DNA from: Raja brachyura
Lineage: Eukaryota
DNA: 64,000 nt
Direction of reading: 5' to 3'
NCBI GenBank assembly: GCA_963514005.1
Contig: OY740790.1
Location: forward strand, 19,716,001-19,780,000
Below are positions 10,171-60,740 of the stretch, one piece after another. The notes beneath the pieces were generated by a model. That model did not search any database and was not told the origin of the DNA. It saw only the letters and a program-made list of their open reading frames with translations. A program made the position numbers and the translations under genes. Positions within the stretch are counted from its first letter, which is position 1. The number at the start of each line of letters is the position of its first letter.

Positions 10171-10380
10171 GTGTAGAAAGGGACTGCAGATGCTGGTTTA
10201 AACTGAAGATGGACACAAAAAGCTGGAGTAACTCAGTGGGTCAGACAGCATCACTGGACAAAAGGAATAGGTGACAGTTCGTGTCTGTAGAAGGGTCTCG
10301 ACCCGAAACGTCACCTCTTCCTTTTCTCCAGAGATGCTGTCTGACCCGCCGAGTTGTTCCAGCTTGTTTTGTCTATCTTC
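10171..10380. mobile_element. Palindromic Penelope-terminus-derived short element with a mutated hammerhead core
   Basis: Inverted arms gacacaaaaagctggagtaactcag...ggtgac / gtcacc...gagttgttccagcttgttttgtc around ctgtagaagggtctcgacccgaaacgtc (10285-10312). Confidence 0.8.
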
Positions 10381-43719: not shown

Positions 43720-44010
43720 GTTTTGCTATTGGGTGACCAATCCATCGATCTGAACTAATGATCTTGAGTTTCAATTCCAACATGGACAGCTGTAGAATTT
43801 AAATTTAATTAATTAAATGGGTAAAGAATAAAAAGCTGCAATCAGTAATGATGATGATGTAGCTTCAGATCCACATATAAACGCATTTGGTTCACCAATG
43901 TCAGGATGGAAATTTGTCCTTGTGTGATTTGGCCTAGTGCGACACTGGACATATACTTGTGTATTTGACTAATAACCCTCTGAGATGGCAGAGCAACTCA
44001 GTTCATAGGA
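43720..44010 (+). mobile_element. Degenerate chondrichthyan SINE/LINE-tail relic
   Basis: gagtttcaattccaacatgg...gaatttaaatttaat...tggttcaccaatgtc...ccctctgagatggc...actcagttc resembles a common shark/ray interspersed repeat as I recall it. Confidence 0.45.
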
Positions 44011-44576
44011 AATTAGGCAAAGGTAAACATGTTGATATTACTAATAAAGCACAGGAATGAAATAAGATATTGACTGTTTTTAATTTTATTTGTCATTATT
44101 TAAGTTGTCATAGGATACAGTAATTGCTTAATTATTATTAATTGCTAAATTATTAATGCTTAATAATAAACCTATGTTTTTATATAATTAGGCTTGGTGT
44201 TGCAGGGATAAGGAAAGATAAGGCTGCTGATATGCAAATATTTTAGCCAATATGTAAGCATGATTGTCAAACCCTGTCATAGTCTACTCATTATTGAACA
44301 TAACTGTACAAAGAGTGTTGGAGCATAGGTAGGAAACCGTGTTTTTTTTAGAGGGGAGGGTGGGTAATGTTGTGGGCTGGGGCAATATAGACAAAGTGAA
44401 GCCACTGTGACATTCTTTTCCAGATATAAATAATATGAAACCTATGCTGTGCACTTCAATTCAATCTGGGGAGAAGATGCATTATGGTTTTTTTTTCTCA
44501 TTGTGGGTATTAGTGCCCAAGAGATGGAAATAAACTTTAATTATACCAGGAACCATTCTTTTCTCTTCTATTGTAG

Positions 44577-44712
44577 GTTAAAACAATTGATCAAAATTAT
44601 CCTTGTGGTGTTGATTTCATTTGCTTGTTGCTGGCTACCCTTCCTCACCAGTTTCGAACAGTCTCTGCAGGTGATTCGAAGGATTTTCCCAGTGGATAGA
44701 GGTTTGTTTGAG
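44577..44712 (+). CDS. alg6: ALG6 coding exon 8 (136 nt)
   Basis: ttgtag acceptor; LKQLIKIILVVLISFACCWLPFLTSFEQSLQVIRRIFPVDRGLFE; donor gtgcgt. Confidence 0.95.
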
Positions 44713-47700
44713 GTGCGTTCAGGAGATTATTGGTAACTGTATGTTTTATTATAGTTGTTTACCATTTATAGAACTTGGAGATTGTAGCGGCACTTGTGTA
44801 ATTTCAAGCCAGAGTGTAACACGGAGATATTGTTCAAGATGCCACTTTGGTATTCTTCCTCATGTTGCAGAATCACTGGGAATGTTGAAAAAAGATCTTT
44901 TACCAGATCAACAAAATGAACCATGCTTATGAGCCCAATTATCCAACTAAACCTAAGGTGCAAAGCCCACTATCCTCATCTGACAACAAGTTCATCATAA
45001 AATCTCCATGATTAACATTTCAATGATAATATTAGCTCAGCAACGGTGTAAAAGTCTTACATGAAATACTTATTTGGACATGGGTGAGGACGAACTTGAG
45101 AAATTGTTAGCGTTAGCAAGTTAGTGACAAGTTAGGCATCTCCAATTGCTGTTTAAAAATATGCTGATGTGTAAATTACACGTTCAGCCATAAAATTGAT
45201 ATCTGCTCAGTTTGTTTGTAGAATGCGTCAAGCATTAACCTTCTAACCTTTCTCCGTGTCCTCATCAAATTCGGGGCCGATATTCTATCTGTGCCATGTA
45301 TGAGGGAAATTATTCCATCAGTCTGAGGCGTGGCCAGCTTGCCTGTGAAGTTATGTCCCCTCCAGTTGTGACACTGACAACTGTCTCTGCCGTTTCTATT
45401 TCCTGTCTTGAATAGAGGTATCAGATATTGCATTCTTGATACTGATATCATAGCCTTCCACAGATAGCCCATTTATAGAACCAATTTGGCTCAAACGTAA
45501 CCCTTGAAATTGGCGTGCACTTGTATCGTAAACACCACAGATTCTGTTGACTCAGTCAGGCCTGTGAATGTTAGTGCCACGCATTATTCTGCCATTTTGG
45601 TGTTTGGTGTGCTGTGAGCAGTAACTTTGCTGGACTTAACAGCAAACAAATTAGTGATAGAGCACTTGACCGCAACTTGGTTGTTCTGGTCAAGTGCTCG
45701 TTTACAAATGCTTTTTAATTCAACAGAATGAATGAAATGCCTATGGAACATGAAACCTGTGTTAAAGTCTTAGTAGTTGTTAATTTATTTTGAATCTGAT
45801 GTTGTTTGCATGTTCGAGTGGAAGTGGTGCAGCTGTCGGGGGTTCCATGTATTTGTGGCATCGCAGATGCTGGCCCCATCCAGACACTAAAAAATCACCA
45901 CTCTACTGGTGATACTGAATCAATGGCCATTCTCTAGGATATACAAGTACTTTGCACTTGATTCACTGAAAAACATAGGAAGCAGGCATTCTCTTTTCTT
46001 CATCCCAAATGTCCATCAAAACAATTGGAAGCAACGTTTCCCTTTCTGGATGCACAAACAAATCTCTGCAGTTGCCTTTTCTAATTCAGCACAGATCAAG
46101 AATGAAACCTGCAGCTTTCATGTCTGCCTGGTCTAGAACTATGTGGAGGGAAAAAAGTATTTATTCCACAAGGGGTAGCTTTGTTATTTCTTCACATACC
46201 AACTTGTGGCAGTATGCAATAAAAATGGTAATTAAATAAATCTATTGTAATGGTTAGTATATGTTCAATTGCTTTGTTCAGTAGTAAAATATCATAACTT
46301 GTTACAGCTTTCTTCTGCTCTTGGTTTAATCAGATACCATTTGCTAAGTATTTGCAGGAATATATTTTAATGAACTTCAGTTGTGTTTAAGTTTCAACTG
46401 TCATGTAGCAGGCTTTGGAGAAGTGTGCAGATTCAAGCAAGAATTAAATGTCAGTGCTCTGGAAGAAAGATATGTTGTTATGCCGCTGCAAATCTTTTTT
46501 ATCACATCTCTTGTAGATCTTCAGAAGTGCTTTGCATATAATTACTCTGAAGTTCATTGGCCACTGTCACTAAAGGTTCATGTTAATAGGCTAATAATGC
46601 ATAGTCTTGGATTATTGATCCAGTGATAGTTCAAATTAACATATAGTTAATTAGGGAGGTAGAACTGGAATACCACAAGCTGATGTTAGTAATGTGGTAT
46701 TGAATCGACTGATTATTGTCAAAAGAAACCATCACACCGCTGATGTCCACCTTGACTTAACTGTGACTCCAACTATGTGGTTGACTAGCCAGCAGGATGG
46801 CGCCTCCAAATTTTATCGTGCTCCAAATGTTAGCGAGAAGGAATGTGCAGGGCTGCTTTGTGGTCAGTCTACACAACAGTAAATTCATCTAAAGGAGTGA
46901 CGTACAATTGACCCCGGGGGAGTTGTAGGGATTTCCATATCATGTGAATGAAGGATATTTAGGAAAATGTAGCATGATGTTGTGTGCAGAAAAAATCCAT
47001 GAATGTTAGATAAATGTTCAGTAATGTATTTATTGTTTTGATTTGGAAAGATTTTGCAACAGATATTAACACTCCTTATATTCAAGTACACTTCATAGTC
47101 AATGGAACGATTGGAGGAGATAACGCTGTTAACTAAATATCAGTTCCTGGTCAGTACAGCACCAGCTGACTAGATTGCAGAATCCAATAAACCTTGCCTA
47201 CAAAGTATCCTGTGCTCCTTGCAATCTGTACAGACACATCTTTTGGGTTTTTTTTCTCCTTCTTTTCAGCCCTTTAGTCTCGGGACTTGGTCAGAATTAC
47301 TTGGCAGTTATTCGACTTGTGTTTTGCCAGATGGTGATGATGCAATGTCTGCGTATGTCAGAGAAAACTGCTGAACTTTACCGTGGATCGAGAAAACCAA
47401 CTGCATAATAGCTACAGTATAAACCTGAAAACCCCTTAATAAACTGCTCCAAATGACAAAATATATGCATAGCAAAATTGGAAATCTACCACTGTGGTAC
47501 AAAAAAATTTTGGTCTTTGGGCCATTTTCCACGTGTTAGCGGAAAAATGATTTATGATAGATTTCATGTTCAAGATCAAAACTAGGAGACGCACTGCAGT
47601 GCAGCTAGCAGATTCATAGTCATACAGCATGGAGGCCCTTCAGCCCAACAGGCCCTTCTGCCCATGCCGACCAAAATGCCCCATCAGCAGTAATCTCCCG

Positions 47701-48624
47701 ATACTGTGTTGGGTTAATATCTCTCTAAATCATTCTTATCCATTTACCTGTCCAAATGTCTTTTAAATATTGTTTAGTATCTGTCTCAACTACCCCCAGC
47801 AGCTCAATCCATATACCCACCTTGTGTGAACCAGTTGCCCCTCAGGACTCTATTAAATCTTTCCCCTCTCACCGTAATCCTATGATCTCTGGGGGTTCTT
47901 GATTCCCCTACTCTGGTTAAAAGACTGTGCATCTGCCCCATCTATTTCCCACATGAATTAATCCACCTCTGATAGATCACCCCTTATCCTCCTCCACCCC
48001 AAGGAATAAAGTTCTAGTCTGTGCAAACTCTCCCTATAGCTCAGGCCTCGAGCCCTGTAAATCAGTACTCCAAATGTATCCTCACCAATGTATTGTACCA
48101 CTATAACATAACATCCCAACTTCTATACTCACTACCCGGACCGATGAAGGTCAGTGCACTGAATCGCTTCTTGACCATCCTGTGATGTCACTTTCAATGA
48201 CTTGTGTACGTGTACTCCCAGATCCCACTGCTGTACAACATTCCCGAGAGTCCTCCTGCTCACTGTGAAATTCCTACCCTGGTTTGACTTCCCCAAAAAA
48301 CAGCAATGGACCCCACACCAATCCCCAAGTCACACGCTAGTCACAGATATCCAGTACGAAAAACAACTTTTCACCATCACCCTTTACCTCTTTCCATGAA
48401 GCTGATTTTCTATCCAGTCGGCTAGCTCTCCCTGGATCCCATGTGATCTAACCTACCATAGAAGCCAACTATGCAGAACCTTATTAAATGCCTTAGTGAG
48501 GTCCATATTTTCAACGAATATAGCTCTGACCTCATCAACTTTTACTTCAAAAACTCAATCAGATTTGTGAGACCTAATTTCTCGCAAACAAAACCATGCT
48601 GACTATCACCAATCAACCCCTGTC

Positions 48625-49223
48625 TAACCAAGCGGAGGCTGGGCGATCGTTTCGCCGAACACCTCCGCTCGGTCCGCAATAACCAACCCGACCTCCCGGT
48701 GGCTCAGCACTTCAACTCCCCCTCCCATTCCGTATCCGACCTCTCGGTCCTGGGCCTCCTCCACGGCCAGAGTGAGCAACACCGCAAGTTGGAGCAACAG
48801 CACCTCATATTCCGCTTGGGGAGTCTGCATCCTCTGGGCTTAAACATTGAATTTTCTCAATTCTGTTAACCCTGGCTGCCTCCTCCCCTTCCCACCTCCC
48901 CCTCAGCCCTCGGGCCCTGGCATTCCTTCTCTCTCTATCTCTCCCCCACCCAAGTCGCACTATCTTCTGATTTTCACACTACAAACAGCTTACAATGGCC
49001 TGTTTCCTTTATCATTGATACTTTTTTGCATATCTTTCATTCATTGTTCTTTATCTCTCCACATCACCGCCTATATCTCTCGTTTCCCTGACCAGTCTGA
49101 AGAAGGGTCTCGACCCGAAACGTCGCCCATCTCCTTCGCTCCTTAGATGCTGCTGCACCCGCTTAGTTTCTCCAGCTTTTTGTGTAACCCTTGATTCTCC
49201 AGCATCTGCAGTTCCTTCTTTAA
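48625..49223 (+). mobile_element. Penelope-like element 3' end: GIY-YIG C-terminus plus terminal repeat with an intact hammerhead core
   Basis: TKRRLGDRFAEHLRSVRNNQPDLPVAQHFNSPSHSVSDLSVLGLLHGQSEQHRKLEQQHLIFRLGSLHPLGLNIEFSQFC then stop; CpG-rich, so probably young; terminal ...ccagcatctgcagttccttctt. Confidence 0.88.
49097..49124 (+). ncRNA. Candidate minimal type I hammerhead ribozyme core
   Basis: CUGAAGA-A-GGGUC(UC)GACCC-GAAAC-GUC has all the core nucleotides, a stem II hairpin, a palindromic ACGU stem III and a GUC cleavage triplet. Stem I is weak (~2 bp). Confidence 0.6.
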
Positions 49224-49614
49224 CCAAATGTATATATTATCTTATACCTCAGAATATTCTCCAGTATCTTGCCCACCACAGATGTTAGGCTCACTGGTCC
49301 ATAGTTTCCAGGCTTTTTCTAGTAGTCCTTCTTAAACACAACATTAGCCACCCTCCAGTCTTCTGGCACCTCACCCGTATCTAATGACGATTCATGTATC
49401 TCAGCCAGGGTGCCTGCCTATTTCTTTTCTAGCTTCCCACAGTGTCCTCAGACATATCTGATCAGGCCCAGGAGGTTTGTCGACTTTATACGCCTTATTG
49501 TATCAACACTACCACGATTGTAATACTGACTGTCCTCAAAACATTTTTATTAACTGTCCCAAGTTCCCCAGTCTTCATGTCTTTCCCCACAGTAAAAAAA
49601 GCACCTCCAATGCT

Positions 49615-49880
49615 GTTTCATGAAGTCTGCATGTTCTCCCTGTGACCATATGGGTTTCTTTCTGGTGCTGTTTTCCTCCCACACATCATAGATAATCAAA
49701 GACATATGGATTCATTGACCGCTGTAAATTGTCTCTTTTGTGTAGGTAGAATCAGGTGAGAGGTGATGCAAATGAGGGGATAGCAAATAAAATACCCTGA
49801 GCAAAGGTTTAGTGTTAAGGGTTGTTTGACAACTGGTGCAGAATTGGTGGGCAATGACTATTTCCACATATGACTATGTT
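49615..49880 (+). mobile_element. V-SINE fragment
   Basis: tgcatgttctccctgtgaccatatgggtttcttctggtgctgttttcctcccacac V-core. Confidence 0.65.
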
Positions 49881-50257
49881 TCCTTTGATTTACACTTATA
49901 ATCACAAAGTCTTCTCACTTCCAATTTTCAAACTCTTTTCCCCATCACATAACCATTATATTTTGTTGATACTACTATTTCTTGAACAATTTTTCTAAAT
50001 TCCCAAAATGTCACCTGCTCTAATTCCTCCCAATATTCCACACCATGTTGAAATGAAAATTGTTGCACAGTAAACTGTAATTTATACTTTCTGTAAGTTT
50101 CATTGCTGCAAAGGTATAAGGTTTAGGCTATGGCTTTTTAAAACATTTTTTTTAAATGACAGATTTGACTTTTTTGTCTTTATGATATCTTTTATTTCAA
50201 ACGATTAAAAAAAAAGAGAAAAGAAAAGATGAAAATGAATAAATAAAAGGAAAATTT

Positions 50258-50350
50258 TATATATATATATACATACATACATACATACATATGCATGTAC
50301 ATATATATACATACATATACACATATACATAACATATATGTACATACATA
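50258..50350. repeat. Compound (TA)n/(TACA)n microsatellite
   Basis: tatatatatatatacatacatacatacatacatatgcatgtacatatatatacatac... Confidence 0.9.
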
Positions 50351-51149
50351 AATTAAAAAATCAAAAGCTAATTTCAACATAATACACATTAGACTCCTTT
50401 GAAAAGGGATAGGAAGAAGCCTATGCTTGTCAAGTCCTAACCCCATTCTTCACCATTAACAAATGCAAAATTCAATAAAATAAACTAAACAGACAATTCA
50501 AATAAAACTACTCCAATCAAGCTATTAATAAAACAAAACAAAAAAAGAAAAGAACAAAAGAACAAGCACCATTAACATCTGTGAGATTTACATTCTCCTT
50601 CCTCATTACTGTACTTTTCAAGGATATATCTTTTGTACATTTTTTTAAATTGCATTATGTTCATTCTTTGTTTAATCGTTTCGTCAAGACCATTCCACAA
50701 AACCACTTTTGATGTCCCAATTTGATATTCCAACACACATTCTGTGAATGACCACTAGTCTGTGCTATTGTATAGTTTAGCAATGACTTTCATACTAGAA
50801 AATGTAAGTTGGTAACTTTATTGGCACTTGCATAATTTACACGTTTGTTCAGTATTAGCAATTGAAGTATTGTTGCTCCGGTGGTATGAAGTTGAAAGTT
50901 GAATTTTGAAAACCTGAGTCAGAATTACAGATTTGGTGCACCAGCGTTGTTGCTGTACATGCAGGTGGGATAATTTGCTGTGCCAATTCATTGATGAGGA
51001 GTAAGTGTGACCACTGTTCACTTCAGCAGCCTACCTGAAGATGGCTGCACCCTAGACCATTGCATAATTTCAGTTGAATGGCAGGGTGCAGTTGAGAAGA
51101 AAAATATAGGACATGGATATAATGTTCCAATATTTAGTAGTAATTTTTG

Positions 51150-51505
51150 TGTATAAAATCATGAGAGGAATAGATCGGGAAGATGAACAGAATCTCTTGC
51201 CCAGAGTAGGTGAATCGAGGACCAGAGCACATAGGTTTAAGGTGAAGGGGAAAATACTTAATAGGAATCTGAGGGGTAACTTTATCATGCAAAGGGTTGT
51301 GGGTGAATGGAACAAGCAGCTAGAGGAGGTAGTTGATGCTGGGACTATCTCAACGAGTAAGAAGCAGTTAGACAGGTACATAGGTAGGACAGGTTTGGAG
51401 GGATATGGACCAAACACAGGCAGGTGGGACTAATGTAGCTGAGACGTGTTGGCCGGTGTCGGCAAAAGGCCTGTTTCCACGCTGTATCACTGTGAGTCTA
51501 TGACA
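51150..51505 (+). mobile_element. CR1 3' end
   Basis: VYKIMRGIDREDEQNLLPRVGESRTRAHRFKVKG...QRVVGEWNKQLEEVV...LEGYGPNTGRWD followed by a 3' UTR. Confidence 0.88.
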
Positions 51506-53568
51506 ATGGTGGGGCTCTTTGGATTTGACATTACTTGGCAACTAATATTTCACTTAACTTTCAGCCTATTTCTCAGCAGCCTTCTTGTCCAAACCACCCT
51601 ACTACATATTGGCAAAGATCTCTGAGTGCATATGAGGTGTATATGCCAGCATATGGTTGGATCAATCATAATGCTGAAATAAACTAGGCTGCTGAATAAG
51701 TCACATTCCCTCTCTTAGTCAACTGTCACAACCTTGTAAATGTCTCTGATATTTAGAAACATTCCAAACTTTAGAATTTTATCCGTTTTCTAGTACTTTA
51801 AACTATTTAAAATACAAAACAATATAATTAAATTTAAATAACTAGATTTAACAAAAAAAAAGATTTAATACTTAGCTTGTTTCCTTGCAGCTGGTTCCCC
51901 CCATTAATATGAATGGAGTTGTGGTTCCTGTGCAAGACTTAACCTGGCATAGGTTCAGGTGGGAAATTAGAGAATGTCATGGTTCTGCCACTACACTCCA
52001 TGACTCTGCTAAAAAGGGCAATCAGCTATCAAGAGATTCTGCATTTGTGTTTGTGTGCACCAGTAGAAATCCCAAATTTGCCCATGTCCAGGGAAATAGT
52101 AACAGATAGAGAAGCGGTAACTTGAGGTGGACGGTGAAGTTGCAGAGTGTGGCGTCGTACATTTCTTGGTCGTGTAGAATCCATTGCCTAATTTATGACC
52201 TATTTTTGGGTTGTTAGCTGTTTCCCGAGTTTGCCTCTTAATATATCGGTAAGGTCACACCACATGATAGAGTGTCGTATTGCAGAATTGTGCTGAGTGA
52301 CTAAGACGTTAAAGGGAAAAATATAAGCACGGTTCTTCTGTTTGCACAGCAGGGGTACTGAACTTACATAAGTATTCAGAAAAATTAAAGCAACAGAACT
52401 TGAAAGTACAAAAAAGCCAGGGACATTGCTAATTTAATCTGAGTTGATGTGATTACAAACAAGACCTCTCCAGGAAGACATTCTAAAATCTCTAAAAGAT
52501 ATTGAATAAGGATGTATTTAGTATATTGCAACAATTTTAGTCAGTTTTGCCTAATTGCATAAGTAACATTGATCACAGAGATCTGAACTGTATAGGAAAT
52601 ATTATATTTTGTGCAACATTTGTTCATCTTGTTAAATACTTGTAGTGTTTTTTGTCAATCTCAATTTGATTCGACTGAAAATTATTCCTCTTTTCAAAAA
52701 ATAATTCTGTTGAATGTTCTGCATTTGTTCTCAATTTGCTGGGTAAGAAAACACTTCTAATTTACAAGTTTTCTTTGGTACACTCAATTTGATCCAAATA
52801 ATTTGTTTATCAATACTTTTCCATCATGTGGAAAAGATTCAACAAATGCTCTTGAGGCAGAGTAAAATAACTCCTTCATACAGGATCCAGATAAATATCT
52901 AGCAATCAATAACTTACTACAGTGGTTCTTTGGGCAGGGGAATAGTGGGAAAAGTGTATTGCAAGTGGAGAATAGGAAAATTGATAAGTTTACAGAATGT
53001 TTGTTTCCCTCAATTTGAAGGGAGCAATAAACTCCAAGGCTCCACTCCACGTATTACATGATTGATGGATTTGTCGTCTTTACTCATTTCATGCTTTCCA
53101 GTGTTATTCTTCTGAATGTACACTTTTGAACCTTGTTTTCAAATCCCCTGGAATATCTTTCGTACTTGTCAGAAGTCCTGATCTCAGTAGCCATTTCTAA
53201 TGAGTATTTCCTGTTAAAGGATACCAAATTCACAGAATTTTAGAATAGTTAAAATGTGGTAGAAGGCCATTCAGTCTGTTGAACCTGTACCAACTGCTTG
53301 CAAGCAATCTAGCTAGTCCTGTTACTCTGCCCTTGATCTAATTGCCTTGCAAGTTCATGCATTAATCACATGGATCATGGGGTCCCACATTTCATCATGG
53401 TATATTGATAGAGCGAGGAACTCATTGAATAAATGGTTCTCGTTGCATCTGGTAAATTTGACTAATGCTTAGTTTAAACATTTTCAACAAACCCAGTCTT
53501 TGATTGATACAAATTGATGATCTGCAAGACTTTGTGTCTAATAAATGGCTATATGTGTTTCTAAATAG

Positions 53569-53654
53569 GATAAAGTTGGAAATGTGTGGTGCAGTTTATC
53601 TGTAATCGTGAAGGTGAAGGAGATACTGTCACAACAGACACAGATTTGGCTCAG
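53569..53654 (+). CDS. alg6: ALG6 coding exon 9 (86 nt)
   Basis: aaatag acceptor; DKVGNVWCSLSVIVKVKEILSQQTQIWLS; donor gtagtc. Confidence 0.93.
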
Positions 53655-54317
53655 GTAGTCTTTTTGTTCCCGTTGAACAATTTTGTGTTTAAACATTTCA
53701 CAGTTGTTACCTCAGCAAATGATGAGTTGGTATTTTTAAAGTAATTGCAAATAATATATATTTAATTTTAAAAGCTCTGTTTATTTTAATTGGAAGATGT
53801 TGTATTTTTCTTCCACTGTATGGCTACTTATGACACCATTGAGATCAGTTCATTTTATGTATTCAGTTGAAACTGCCCTATAGCAATCTGGGGCTTCGAG
53901 AATGGGCATCAATTGCGGTATTTAGGTCACCTGGCCAACGATAGGAAAACAATAGAGTAAAAAGTTTTGAGGATAAAATAAGACATTCAATAAAAATTTG
54001 GTGCCATGGAGTTGTACAGCACAGAAATAGGCCCTTCAGCCCAACACATCCATGTCAATCGTTTTGCCCAAATGGACGGTACTTGGTGAAGGAAGGAGCA
54101 AATTTCATACTTATCAGACTCATAAAACAAAATTTTGAACAATCCATTTATGATTCTGACTGAGTGTGTAGCGGAACGGTATTCCAACATTTTCATTTCT
54201 GGTCACATCTGAAGAATGGTAATCCTGTCATGACCGTGACAACAGTTTTTGAAATCCATCCCAGCTGAAGTCAACACCTTGTGGAGGAAATATGTAGAAA
54301 ACTGAATTGAATTTAAA

Positions 54318-56346: not shown

Positions 56347-56580
56347 TTTAAGAAAGAGCTGCAAATGCTGGAAAAATCGAAGGTGGACAAAAATGCTGGA
56401 GAAACTCAGCGGGTGAGGCAACGTCTATGGAGAGAAGGCAACGTTTCAGGTCGAGACCATTCAGTCTGAAAAAGGGTCCGTCTGAAGGAGGGTCAGTCTG
56501 AAGAAGGGTCTCGACCCGAACGTCGCCTATTCATTCTCTCCATAGATGCTGCCTCACCCGCTGCGTTTGTCCAGTATTCT
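56347..56580. mobile_element. Palindromic Penelope-terminus-derived element with a triplicated hammerhead 5' half
   Basis: Inverted arms plus three 16-bp units ngtctgaanragggtc at 56463-56510. Confidence 0.85.
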
Positions 56581-60475: not shown

Positions 60476-60740
60476 GAATATTTTGCTTGATTTGTTTACA
60501 CCCTAGCGGTATGATCATTGACTTCTCCAATTTCAGGTAGTCCGTGTAGTCAGCTTTCTCCCTCCTTCCCCTCCCCTTCCCAGCTCCTCCACAGCCTACT
60601 GTCTCCGCCTCTTCCTCTCTTCTTCCCGCCCCCCCCCACCCCCACATCAGTCTGAAGAAGGGTCTCAACCCGAAACGTCACCTATTTCTTCCTCCATAGA
60701 TGCTGCCTCACCCGCTGAGTTTCTCCAGCATTTTTGTCAC
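60476..60740 (+). mobile_element. Penelope-like 3' terminus with hammerhead core, ~60 nt downstream of alg6 exon 11
   Basis: Reverse complement of the family at 2001-2240 (acttctccaatttcaggtagtcc...ctcctcccacagcctactgtctccgcc-like); ctgaagaagggtctcaacccgaaacgtc at 60652-60679. Confidence 0.85.

Follow-up and report, generated by a model that had tools for sequence, protein, structure and literature searches.

We confirmed that the motif at 49097-49124 on the + strand of the window (the whole 64,000-nt stretch of Raja brachyura DNA analyzed here) is the minimal hammerhead known from Penelope-like elements; it was found exactly where it had been claimed, and reversed controls gave 0 matches. 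We hold it very probable that it is the hammerhead of a 5′-truncated Penelope-like copy that is a neutral passenger, predicted not to cut the alg6 pre-mRNA to any meaningful extent. The motif sequence is far above chance, but its location in alg6 and its intactness are not.

The motif, the element copy and the host intron

The 28-nt core, CTGAAGAAGGGTCTCGACCCGAAACGTC, was located by sequence search of the window. A descriptor scan found the CUGANGA...GAAA...UH core of the minimal hammerhead ribozyme (min-HHR) at 49097-49124, with a palindrome at 15.2-16.2 (ACGU, 49120-49123) replacing stem III. The G10.1-C11.1 pair is present (G49105-C49116), and the extra nucleotide between A9 and 10.1 is A49104. 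The features of the region are as follows.

44713..53568, + strand: alg6 intron with the insertion, GT..AG, 8,856 nt (from flanking exon translations and splice sites)
48625..48631, + strand: left 7-bp TAACCAA, target duplication or microhomology (from junction sequences)
48627..49224, + strand: 5′-truncated EN+ Penelope-like element copy with ORF end, 3′ UTR, hammerhead and long tail (from relatives and common ends)
48627..48869, + strand: C-terminal ORF remnant, a portion of the endonuclease domain downstream of the GIY-YIG motif, to the stop codon (from comparison with the family ORF)
49093..49097, + strand: pile-up of short-copy 5′ ends, putative transcription start, CAGT (from short-copy ends and excess G at -4)
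49095..49126, + strand: minimal hammerhead motif as a whole, 2-bp stem I plus core (from sequence and descriptor scan, features as in the parts of PMC4209133 drawn on)
49097..49103, + strand: C3 to A9 (from the core sequence, hammerhead numbering by established usage)
49104, + strand: extra A after A9 (from the core sequence)
49105..49108/49113..49116, + strand: stem II, 4 bp, GGGU/ACCC, with CUCG tetraloop
49117..49120, + strand: GAAA (G12 to A15.1)
49120..49123, + strand: ACGU palindrome
49124, + strand: C17, with the predicted cut after it (from the core sequence)
49125..49224, + strand: sequence after the cut site including the longer tail; 5′ UTR of the next ORF in full-length units
49221..49227, + strand: right 7-bp TAACCAA, target duplication or microhomology (from junction sequences)
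60652..60679, + strand: further sense motif with intact core, belonging to an older subfamily and located in an alg6 intron farther downstream (from the descriptor scan)

The description of the motif as a minimal type I hammerhead core at a Penelope-like terminus was borne out, as the core, the extra A, the ACGU palindrome and the family ends all match. Its stem II had been drawn with 5 bp and a 2-nt loop, which had to be revised because such a loop cannot close; the workable form has 4 bp and the CUCG tetraloop. Stem I is as weak as had been flagged (about 2 bp), consisting of a U49096-G49125 wobble and G49095-C49126 with mismatches beyond, and this length is at the low end of the published list in the part of the PMC4209133 supplement used here. 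Extension of stem I past an internal loop was considered and rejected, as it adds at most 2 pairs beyond three mismatches in a fold that is not predicted. Rfam covariance models gave 14 matches with E up to 10 in window positions 44000-54000, with no hammerhead among them; the models matched were of microRNAs and snoRNAs, and almost all matches fell on a simple repeat near 50.3 kb.

The copy carrying the motif is 95-97% identical over about 598 nt (48627-49224) to its 39 best other copies (the best 40 of 4,988 scored candidates), and these copies share a common 3′ end and vary in their 5′ reach. It had been called young, in agreement with our finding that only 9 of 598 sites deviate from the majority of 29 close relatives; two changes are private to it: about 7 nt are missing immediately upstream of the motif, and position 49128 has changed from T to C. 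The motif had also been placed downstream of a GIY-YIG C-terminal ORF, and the upstream frame, which ends at 48869, indeed agrees with the C-terminus of the family's ORF, although Pfam gave no match on the window's ORF fragment alone. Identity as a retrozyme was rejected for this copy, which is solitary, retains an ORF remnant and has no tandem unit nearby. The insertion site lies within an older repeat, of which one homologous empty site was found (locus L075). Older LINE-like repeat fragments, presumably of CR1 type, surround the insertion (about 47600-49480 and 51110-51500), and the insertion landed inside one of them. In a related organism (run X8), a contig of single-copy depth fits from 49221 on, but its first 29 letters mismatch the element end; this faintly suggests that the site lacks the insertion there.

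The alg6 exons (Pfam PF03155) lie on the + strand from about 29.5 kb to past the window end and run on beyond it in locus L182, so that the motif is in the sense of alg6 and within one of its introns, as had been stated. The alg6 coding span holds two core-intact sense motifs, at 49097 and 60652. Two further core-intact sense motifs, 297 nt apart (L182:4872 and L182:5169), lie about 1.4-1.7 kb past the alg6 stop codon; this pair is possibly in the alg6 3′ UTR and may be the stronger candidate for dimer cleavage, ahead of the intron copy.

Copy number, core conservation and predicted folding

The exact 28-nt core occurs 50,608 times (25,374 + 25,234) in the 2.70-Gb genome. Core-intact motifs, in which all catalytic bases, G10.1, C11.1 and the ACGU were fixed, number 104,220 genome-wide and are evenly split by strand (52,093 + 52,127), with reversed controls at 0 in both searches. 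An even sample of 80 evenly spaced stretches, 799.6 kb in total, contained 16 exact cores, 37 motifs by the strict descriptor and 331 profile matches including decayed ones (controls 0). From the 104,220 copies, 0.69 sense core-intact motifs are expected per 36-kb gene, and the probability of at least one is 0.16 for the intron at 44713-53568 and 0.50 for 36 kb. By chance alone, a sense copy in alg6 is therefore to be expected (P ~0.5).

Excess conservation of the core relative to its flanks had been proposed as a signature of function, and none was seen among young copies. In 105 copies with anchors flanking the motif (every copy of this kind in the fetched loci, a set hence biased young), the ten non-CpG catalytic sites were changed in 7/1050 cases and the non-CpG flanks in 15/2520 (Fisher p 0.82). 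The exact core was the modal state (60/105), and G12, which lies in a CpG, was changed in 9/105 copies, with other CpG sites ranging from 1 to 14. Since dead copies are expected to decay neutrally, the lack of a core excess speaks against selection on the copies and not against catalysis in the source elements. Within the modest power of this comparison, inserted copies decay neutrally and the intactness of the alg6 copy is the usual state.

The comparison across subfamilies used the 199 of 331 profile matches in the even sample that span the region. The mean difference from the majority was 6.1% at catalytic sites, 15.7% in stem II and its loop and 18.7% in the tail (p 3e-5), with the limits that the core is A-rich, that many tail sites are equally constant and that detection favors good cores. 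Judged by these differences, source elements likely kept the core functional. Alternatively, the motif may be non-catalytic even in source elements and be kept as a promoter or protein-binding sequence. We consider this rather unlikely, as none of the 10 non-CpG catalytic positions varies by subfamily whereas many tail and loop positions do, position 17 is C or U across subfamilies, both of which are permitted, and 2-bp stems I occur in the D. virilis, Culex and Oikopleura motifs in the part of the PMC4209133 supplement covered. What speaks for it is the 2-bp stem I of the present motif, together with the near absence of two-sided (compensatory) stem II changes among the 199 copies; stem changes were one-sided, chiefly U-A to U-G, seen at 2.1-1.1 in 44 copies and at the uppermost pair of stem II in 13. 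The predicted fold of the young family, which hides the core, and the apparently uncut templates described below also favor it.

Nearest-neighbor folding was carried out in seven sequence contexts, with Mg2+, tertiary contacts, co-transcriptional folding and proteins outside the model. Stem II had a probability of at most 0.007 in six of the seven and 0.31 in one, and stem I at most 0.0001 in all seven, so that the alg6 copy is predicted to adopt the active fold only rarely. In the competing folds, either CGAC pairs with GUCG over the cut site or GGGU pairs with GCCC, the latter favored by the private T-to-C change at 49128. With the long tail included, UGAAGAAGG was predicted to pair with the end of the tail. 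Positions 49098-49106 were predicted to pair with 49214-49222, joining the tail end to the catalytic box and the start of stem II, an arrangement that would bring the presumed start of reverse transcription beside the presumed RNA 5′ end. The picture was unchanged at 15 C, the copy in locus L171 was equally low (0.003), and the 16 exact cores of the even sample, in short context, were mostly low as well (0 to 0.17).

The suggestion that this copy is special and likely to cut the alg6 pre-mRNA was not upheld: the active fold is predicted to be rare, and no tandem partner is present. Cutting at a meaningful rate through ACGU pairing, with the motif at 60652 or with another RNA, which would regulate or burden alg6, strikes us as very improbable. 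Every core nucleotide is intact and in sense orientation, a second sense core lies within the same pre-mRNA, and dimer cleavage of min-HHRs is known from the parts of PMC4209133 covered and a review passage (PMC6765202). However, ACGU pairing would contribute only about -2 to -3 kcal/mol, and at -6.7 kcal/mol the double hammerhead lies 16 kcal/mol above the best dimer fold (-22.9 kcal/mol). The nearest possible dimer partner, at 60652, lies in another intron at a distance of 11.5 kb, young copies give no signal of selection on the core in either direction, and about half of all 36-kb genes would hold such a motif. According to the preferred passenger explanation, the alg6 copy would be transcribed as part of the intron and likely be discarded with it; stem I has only 2 bp, and competing hairpins are predicted to pair the cut site and the CUGAAGA box. 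Any cleavage would require a partner motif or the element's protein, as in other Penelope hammerheads. Against this explanation count the core that source elements likely kept functional, which is unchanged in the alg6 copy, and the possible partners, namely the sense core that this pre-mRNA also carries at 60652 and about 100,000 further ones.

Family structure and insertion ends

Near full-length units were reached by stepping upstream from window-type copies in the genome. One of them (L171) has an open ORF of 1191 aa (L171:3149-6721) with DKG, YIDD and YIG motifs and a CX4CX2C linker (CNRKRCYTC); its Pfam matches, RVT_1 (E 0.00034) and GIY-YIG (E 0.0017), are weak, both being below Pfam curated cut-offs. 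A single ORF with RT and C-terminal GIY-YIG, as in EN+ Penelope-like elements, is thus present, and a family with such an open ORF may still be active. The protein also has a Pro/Ser/Thr-rich N-terminal extension of about 450 residues. A classical partial tandem was seen in 1 of 10 long loci examined (L172), with the order hammerhead, 135 nt, ATG, ORF (one stop), 3′ UTR, hammerhead. Its two hammerheads, at 2986 and 6972, are direct and 3,986 nt apart and flank the RT and GIY-YIG ORF. It follows from this order that what lies downstream of the cut site forms the 5′ UTR of the following unit. Across the family we found a partial tandem with pLTRs, inverted 5′ copies, an optional tail and a short target duplication. 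The Zn-finger-like linker between RT and EN, present in L171, is common to Neptune and Nematis in the portion of PMC8557442 used here. Two other loci (L179 and L180) are long tail-to-head-inverted double insertions of about 7 kb each; both strands carry near-complete ORFs, and of the two 3′ ends one is short and the other long. In five loci (L034, L041, L047, L053 and L055) the same RT region is joined to another, C-rich 3′ UTR and to a variant motif with a UUCG loop and a GUU triplet, which suggests exchange of ends between subfamilies.

Insertion ends were sampled by searching with 36 nt of the tail and taking the first 100 of 40,484 exact matches, which all fall within the initial 4.3 Mb of contig C1; choosing copies by the tail is independent of the core. 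While 36 of these retain the upstream UTR, 64 are short. The short copies begin at -5..0 relative to C3 in 42 of 64 cases and at the cut site (+28) in one, which is an inversion junction. In the even sample, 20 of 28 close copies start at -4..0 and 1 at +28. Two classes of 3′ end were found, at about +90 (66/100) and about +130 (34/100) after C3, and the window copy has the longer. An inverted partner was flagged for 16 of the 64 short copies. Head-to-head inverted pairs of hammerhead-plus-tail stubs are also present in the window, at 56347-56574 and 10178-10372.

Templates made of cut RNA would give stubs from +28, and the stubs start elsewhere; the templates for short copies were therefore likely uncut, and the positions of the ends suggest that the transcript likely starts at the 5′ edge of the hammerhead. 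Among copies starting with AGT and the core without the C, the preceding base was G in 54, A in 35 and T in 11 (by eye, in the first 100 listed of 4,464), and G makes up 28% of non-C bases in the background; in the even sample the preceding base was G in 25/56. A copied cap would add such a G, as in other retroelements, and the CAGT at the pile-up resembles an Initiator. Start positions are blurred by 1-2 nt through chance matches, and A also outnumbers T at -4, for which we offer no explanation. As the cause of the pile-up, we give about even chances to a transcription start at the hammerhead edge. Short non-autonomous masters beginning at this edge seem unlikely to be responsible, and we view a splicing-related stop at a pyrimidine tract and CAG before the core with the same reserve; junction chemistry alone is less probable than either. 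Capture of host exons through the CAG before the core was rejected, as no long exon sequence is carried given that target duplications, where found, lie mostly within about 16 nt of C3.

The hammerhead may stand at the very start of the transcript in the source element. The element's protein would bind the transcript, with the hammerhead mostly uncut when reverse transcription begins at +90 or +130. Priming in the upstream repeat would yield short hammerhead-plus-tail stubs and inverted stub pairs, and priming in the downstream repeat would yield longer truncated copies such as that in alg6. We put forward tentatively, as a possibility that we do not yet favor, that the transcript starts 3-4 bases before the core, with the cap recorded as an extra G in thousands of insertions and stem I limited to few pairs. 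Sequence downstream would hold the ribozyme off during reverse transcription, and the ribozyme would then decap the element RNA at a protein-controlled step rather than release unit-length RNA from a longer precursor.

It could also be that the alg6 copy is cut occasionally, only in cells making the element's protein, which would refold it and leave alg6 unaffected. The Penelope hammerhead of the anole is protein-assisted in the parts of PMC11167929 covered, the alg6 copy keeps the long tail, which is located between the two starts of reverse transcription in the anole element, and the genome contains a copy with an open ORF (L171). On the other hand, of the 64 short copies just one, an inversion junction, starts at the cut site, so that even protein-bound templates would rarely be cut before reverse transcription. 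We regard such protein-dependent cutting as improbable, well behind the passenger explanation.

Comparison with known elements and implications

The published systems are compared here on the basis of excerpts of the cited papers. Cervera and De la Pena (2014; PMC4209133) describe min-HHRs in the pLTRs of metazoan Penelope-like elements, thousands per genome and mostly solitary; a single min-HHR showed no cleavage and dimers showed low cleavage. The motif described here shares with these the CUGANGA / GAAA / UH core, the extra base after A9, the G10.1-C11.1 pair, the CG palindrome for stem III and the pLTR location. In both cases copies are mostly solitary and come from truncated elements, with some pairs on opposite strands. 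Most of the listed helices are longer, however, than the 2-bp stem I with a wobble and the 4-bp stem II found here. The counts of that study are about 4,000 for coelacanth and about 9,000 for Xenopus, compared with 104,220 from one family here under different search rules, and cartilaginous fish are absent from its alignment in the part covered.

The hammerhead of PAc (Poseidon, Anolis carolinensis) was cut only with protein, and cleavage was not needed for insertion (PMC11167929, in excerpt). No reads began or ended at its hammerhead site in that work, and two starts of reverse transcription define the tail. As in the family described here, the hammerhead of PAc is near the unit start, the main template is uncut RNA, and there are two 3′ ends with an optional tail some 60-100 nt past the cut site. 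The ORF of PAc starts inside stem II, whereas here the ATG is 135 nt past the cut site (L172), and the CX4CX2C linker (a Neptune/Nematis feature) and the long Pro-rich N-terminus set the present family apart from PAc. PAc is known from biochemistry and the present family from genomic insertion ends.

Clade features of Penelope-like elements are given in PMC8557442, whose excerpt calls the role of their hammerheads unclear. EN+ elements of the Neptune clade resemble the present family in having RT followed by C-terminal GIY-YIG, the DKG motif, the Zn-finger-like linker, a partial pLTR tandem, inverted 5′ copies and an optional tail. By these features, the family appears Neptune- or Nematis-like. 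Inverted pLTRs, tails and Initiator-like sequences within pLTRs are described in passages of PMC3846280 and PMC2377424. Non-LTR retrozymes have been reported in one chondrichthyan, and Xenopus retrozymes are 42-44% intronic, a relative deficit (bioRxiv 10.64898/2026.07.22.740005, in excerpt). They likewise have a type I hammerhead derived from Penelope ends and many intronic copies, but are tandem non-coding units, whereas the window copy is solitary and has an ORF end. In the passages covered of literature outside subscription papers and Repbase, we found no report of this copy number or of a 5′ pile-up at the hammerhead edge, which may nevertheless be known.

The motif is real, of a known kind and in an ordinary location, and the uncut-template record of its family is the part worth following. 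The insertion ends argue against cleavage as the step that produces the template, in agreement with the in vitro work on the anole element. alg6 itself is most likely unaffected, the copy being one of very many. If the decapping role put forward above is true, a genome with about 100,000 intact-core insertions would be a direct test bed for the function of Penelope hammerheads and for the tolerance of introns to them. The copy number would let a count of sense versus antisense motifs in annotated introns gauge RNA cutting by these motifs in vivo.
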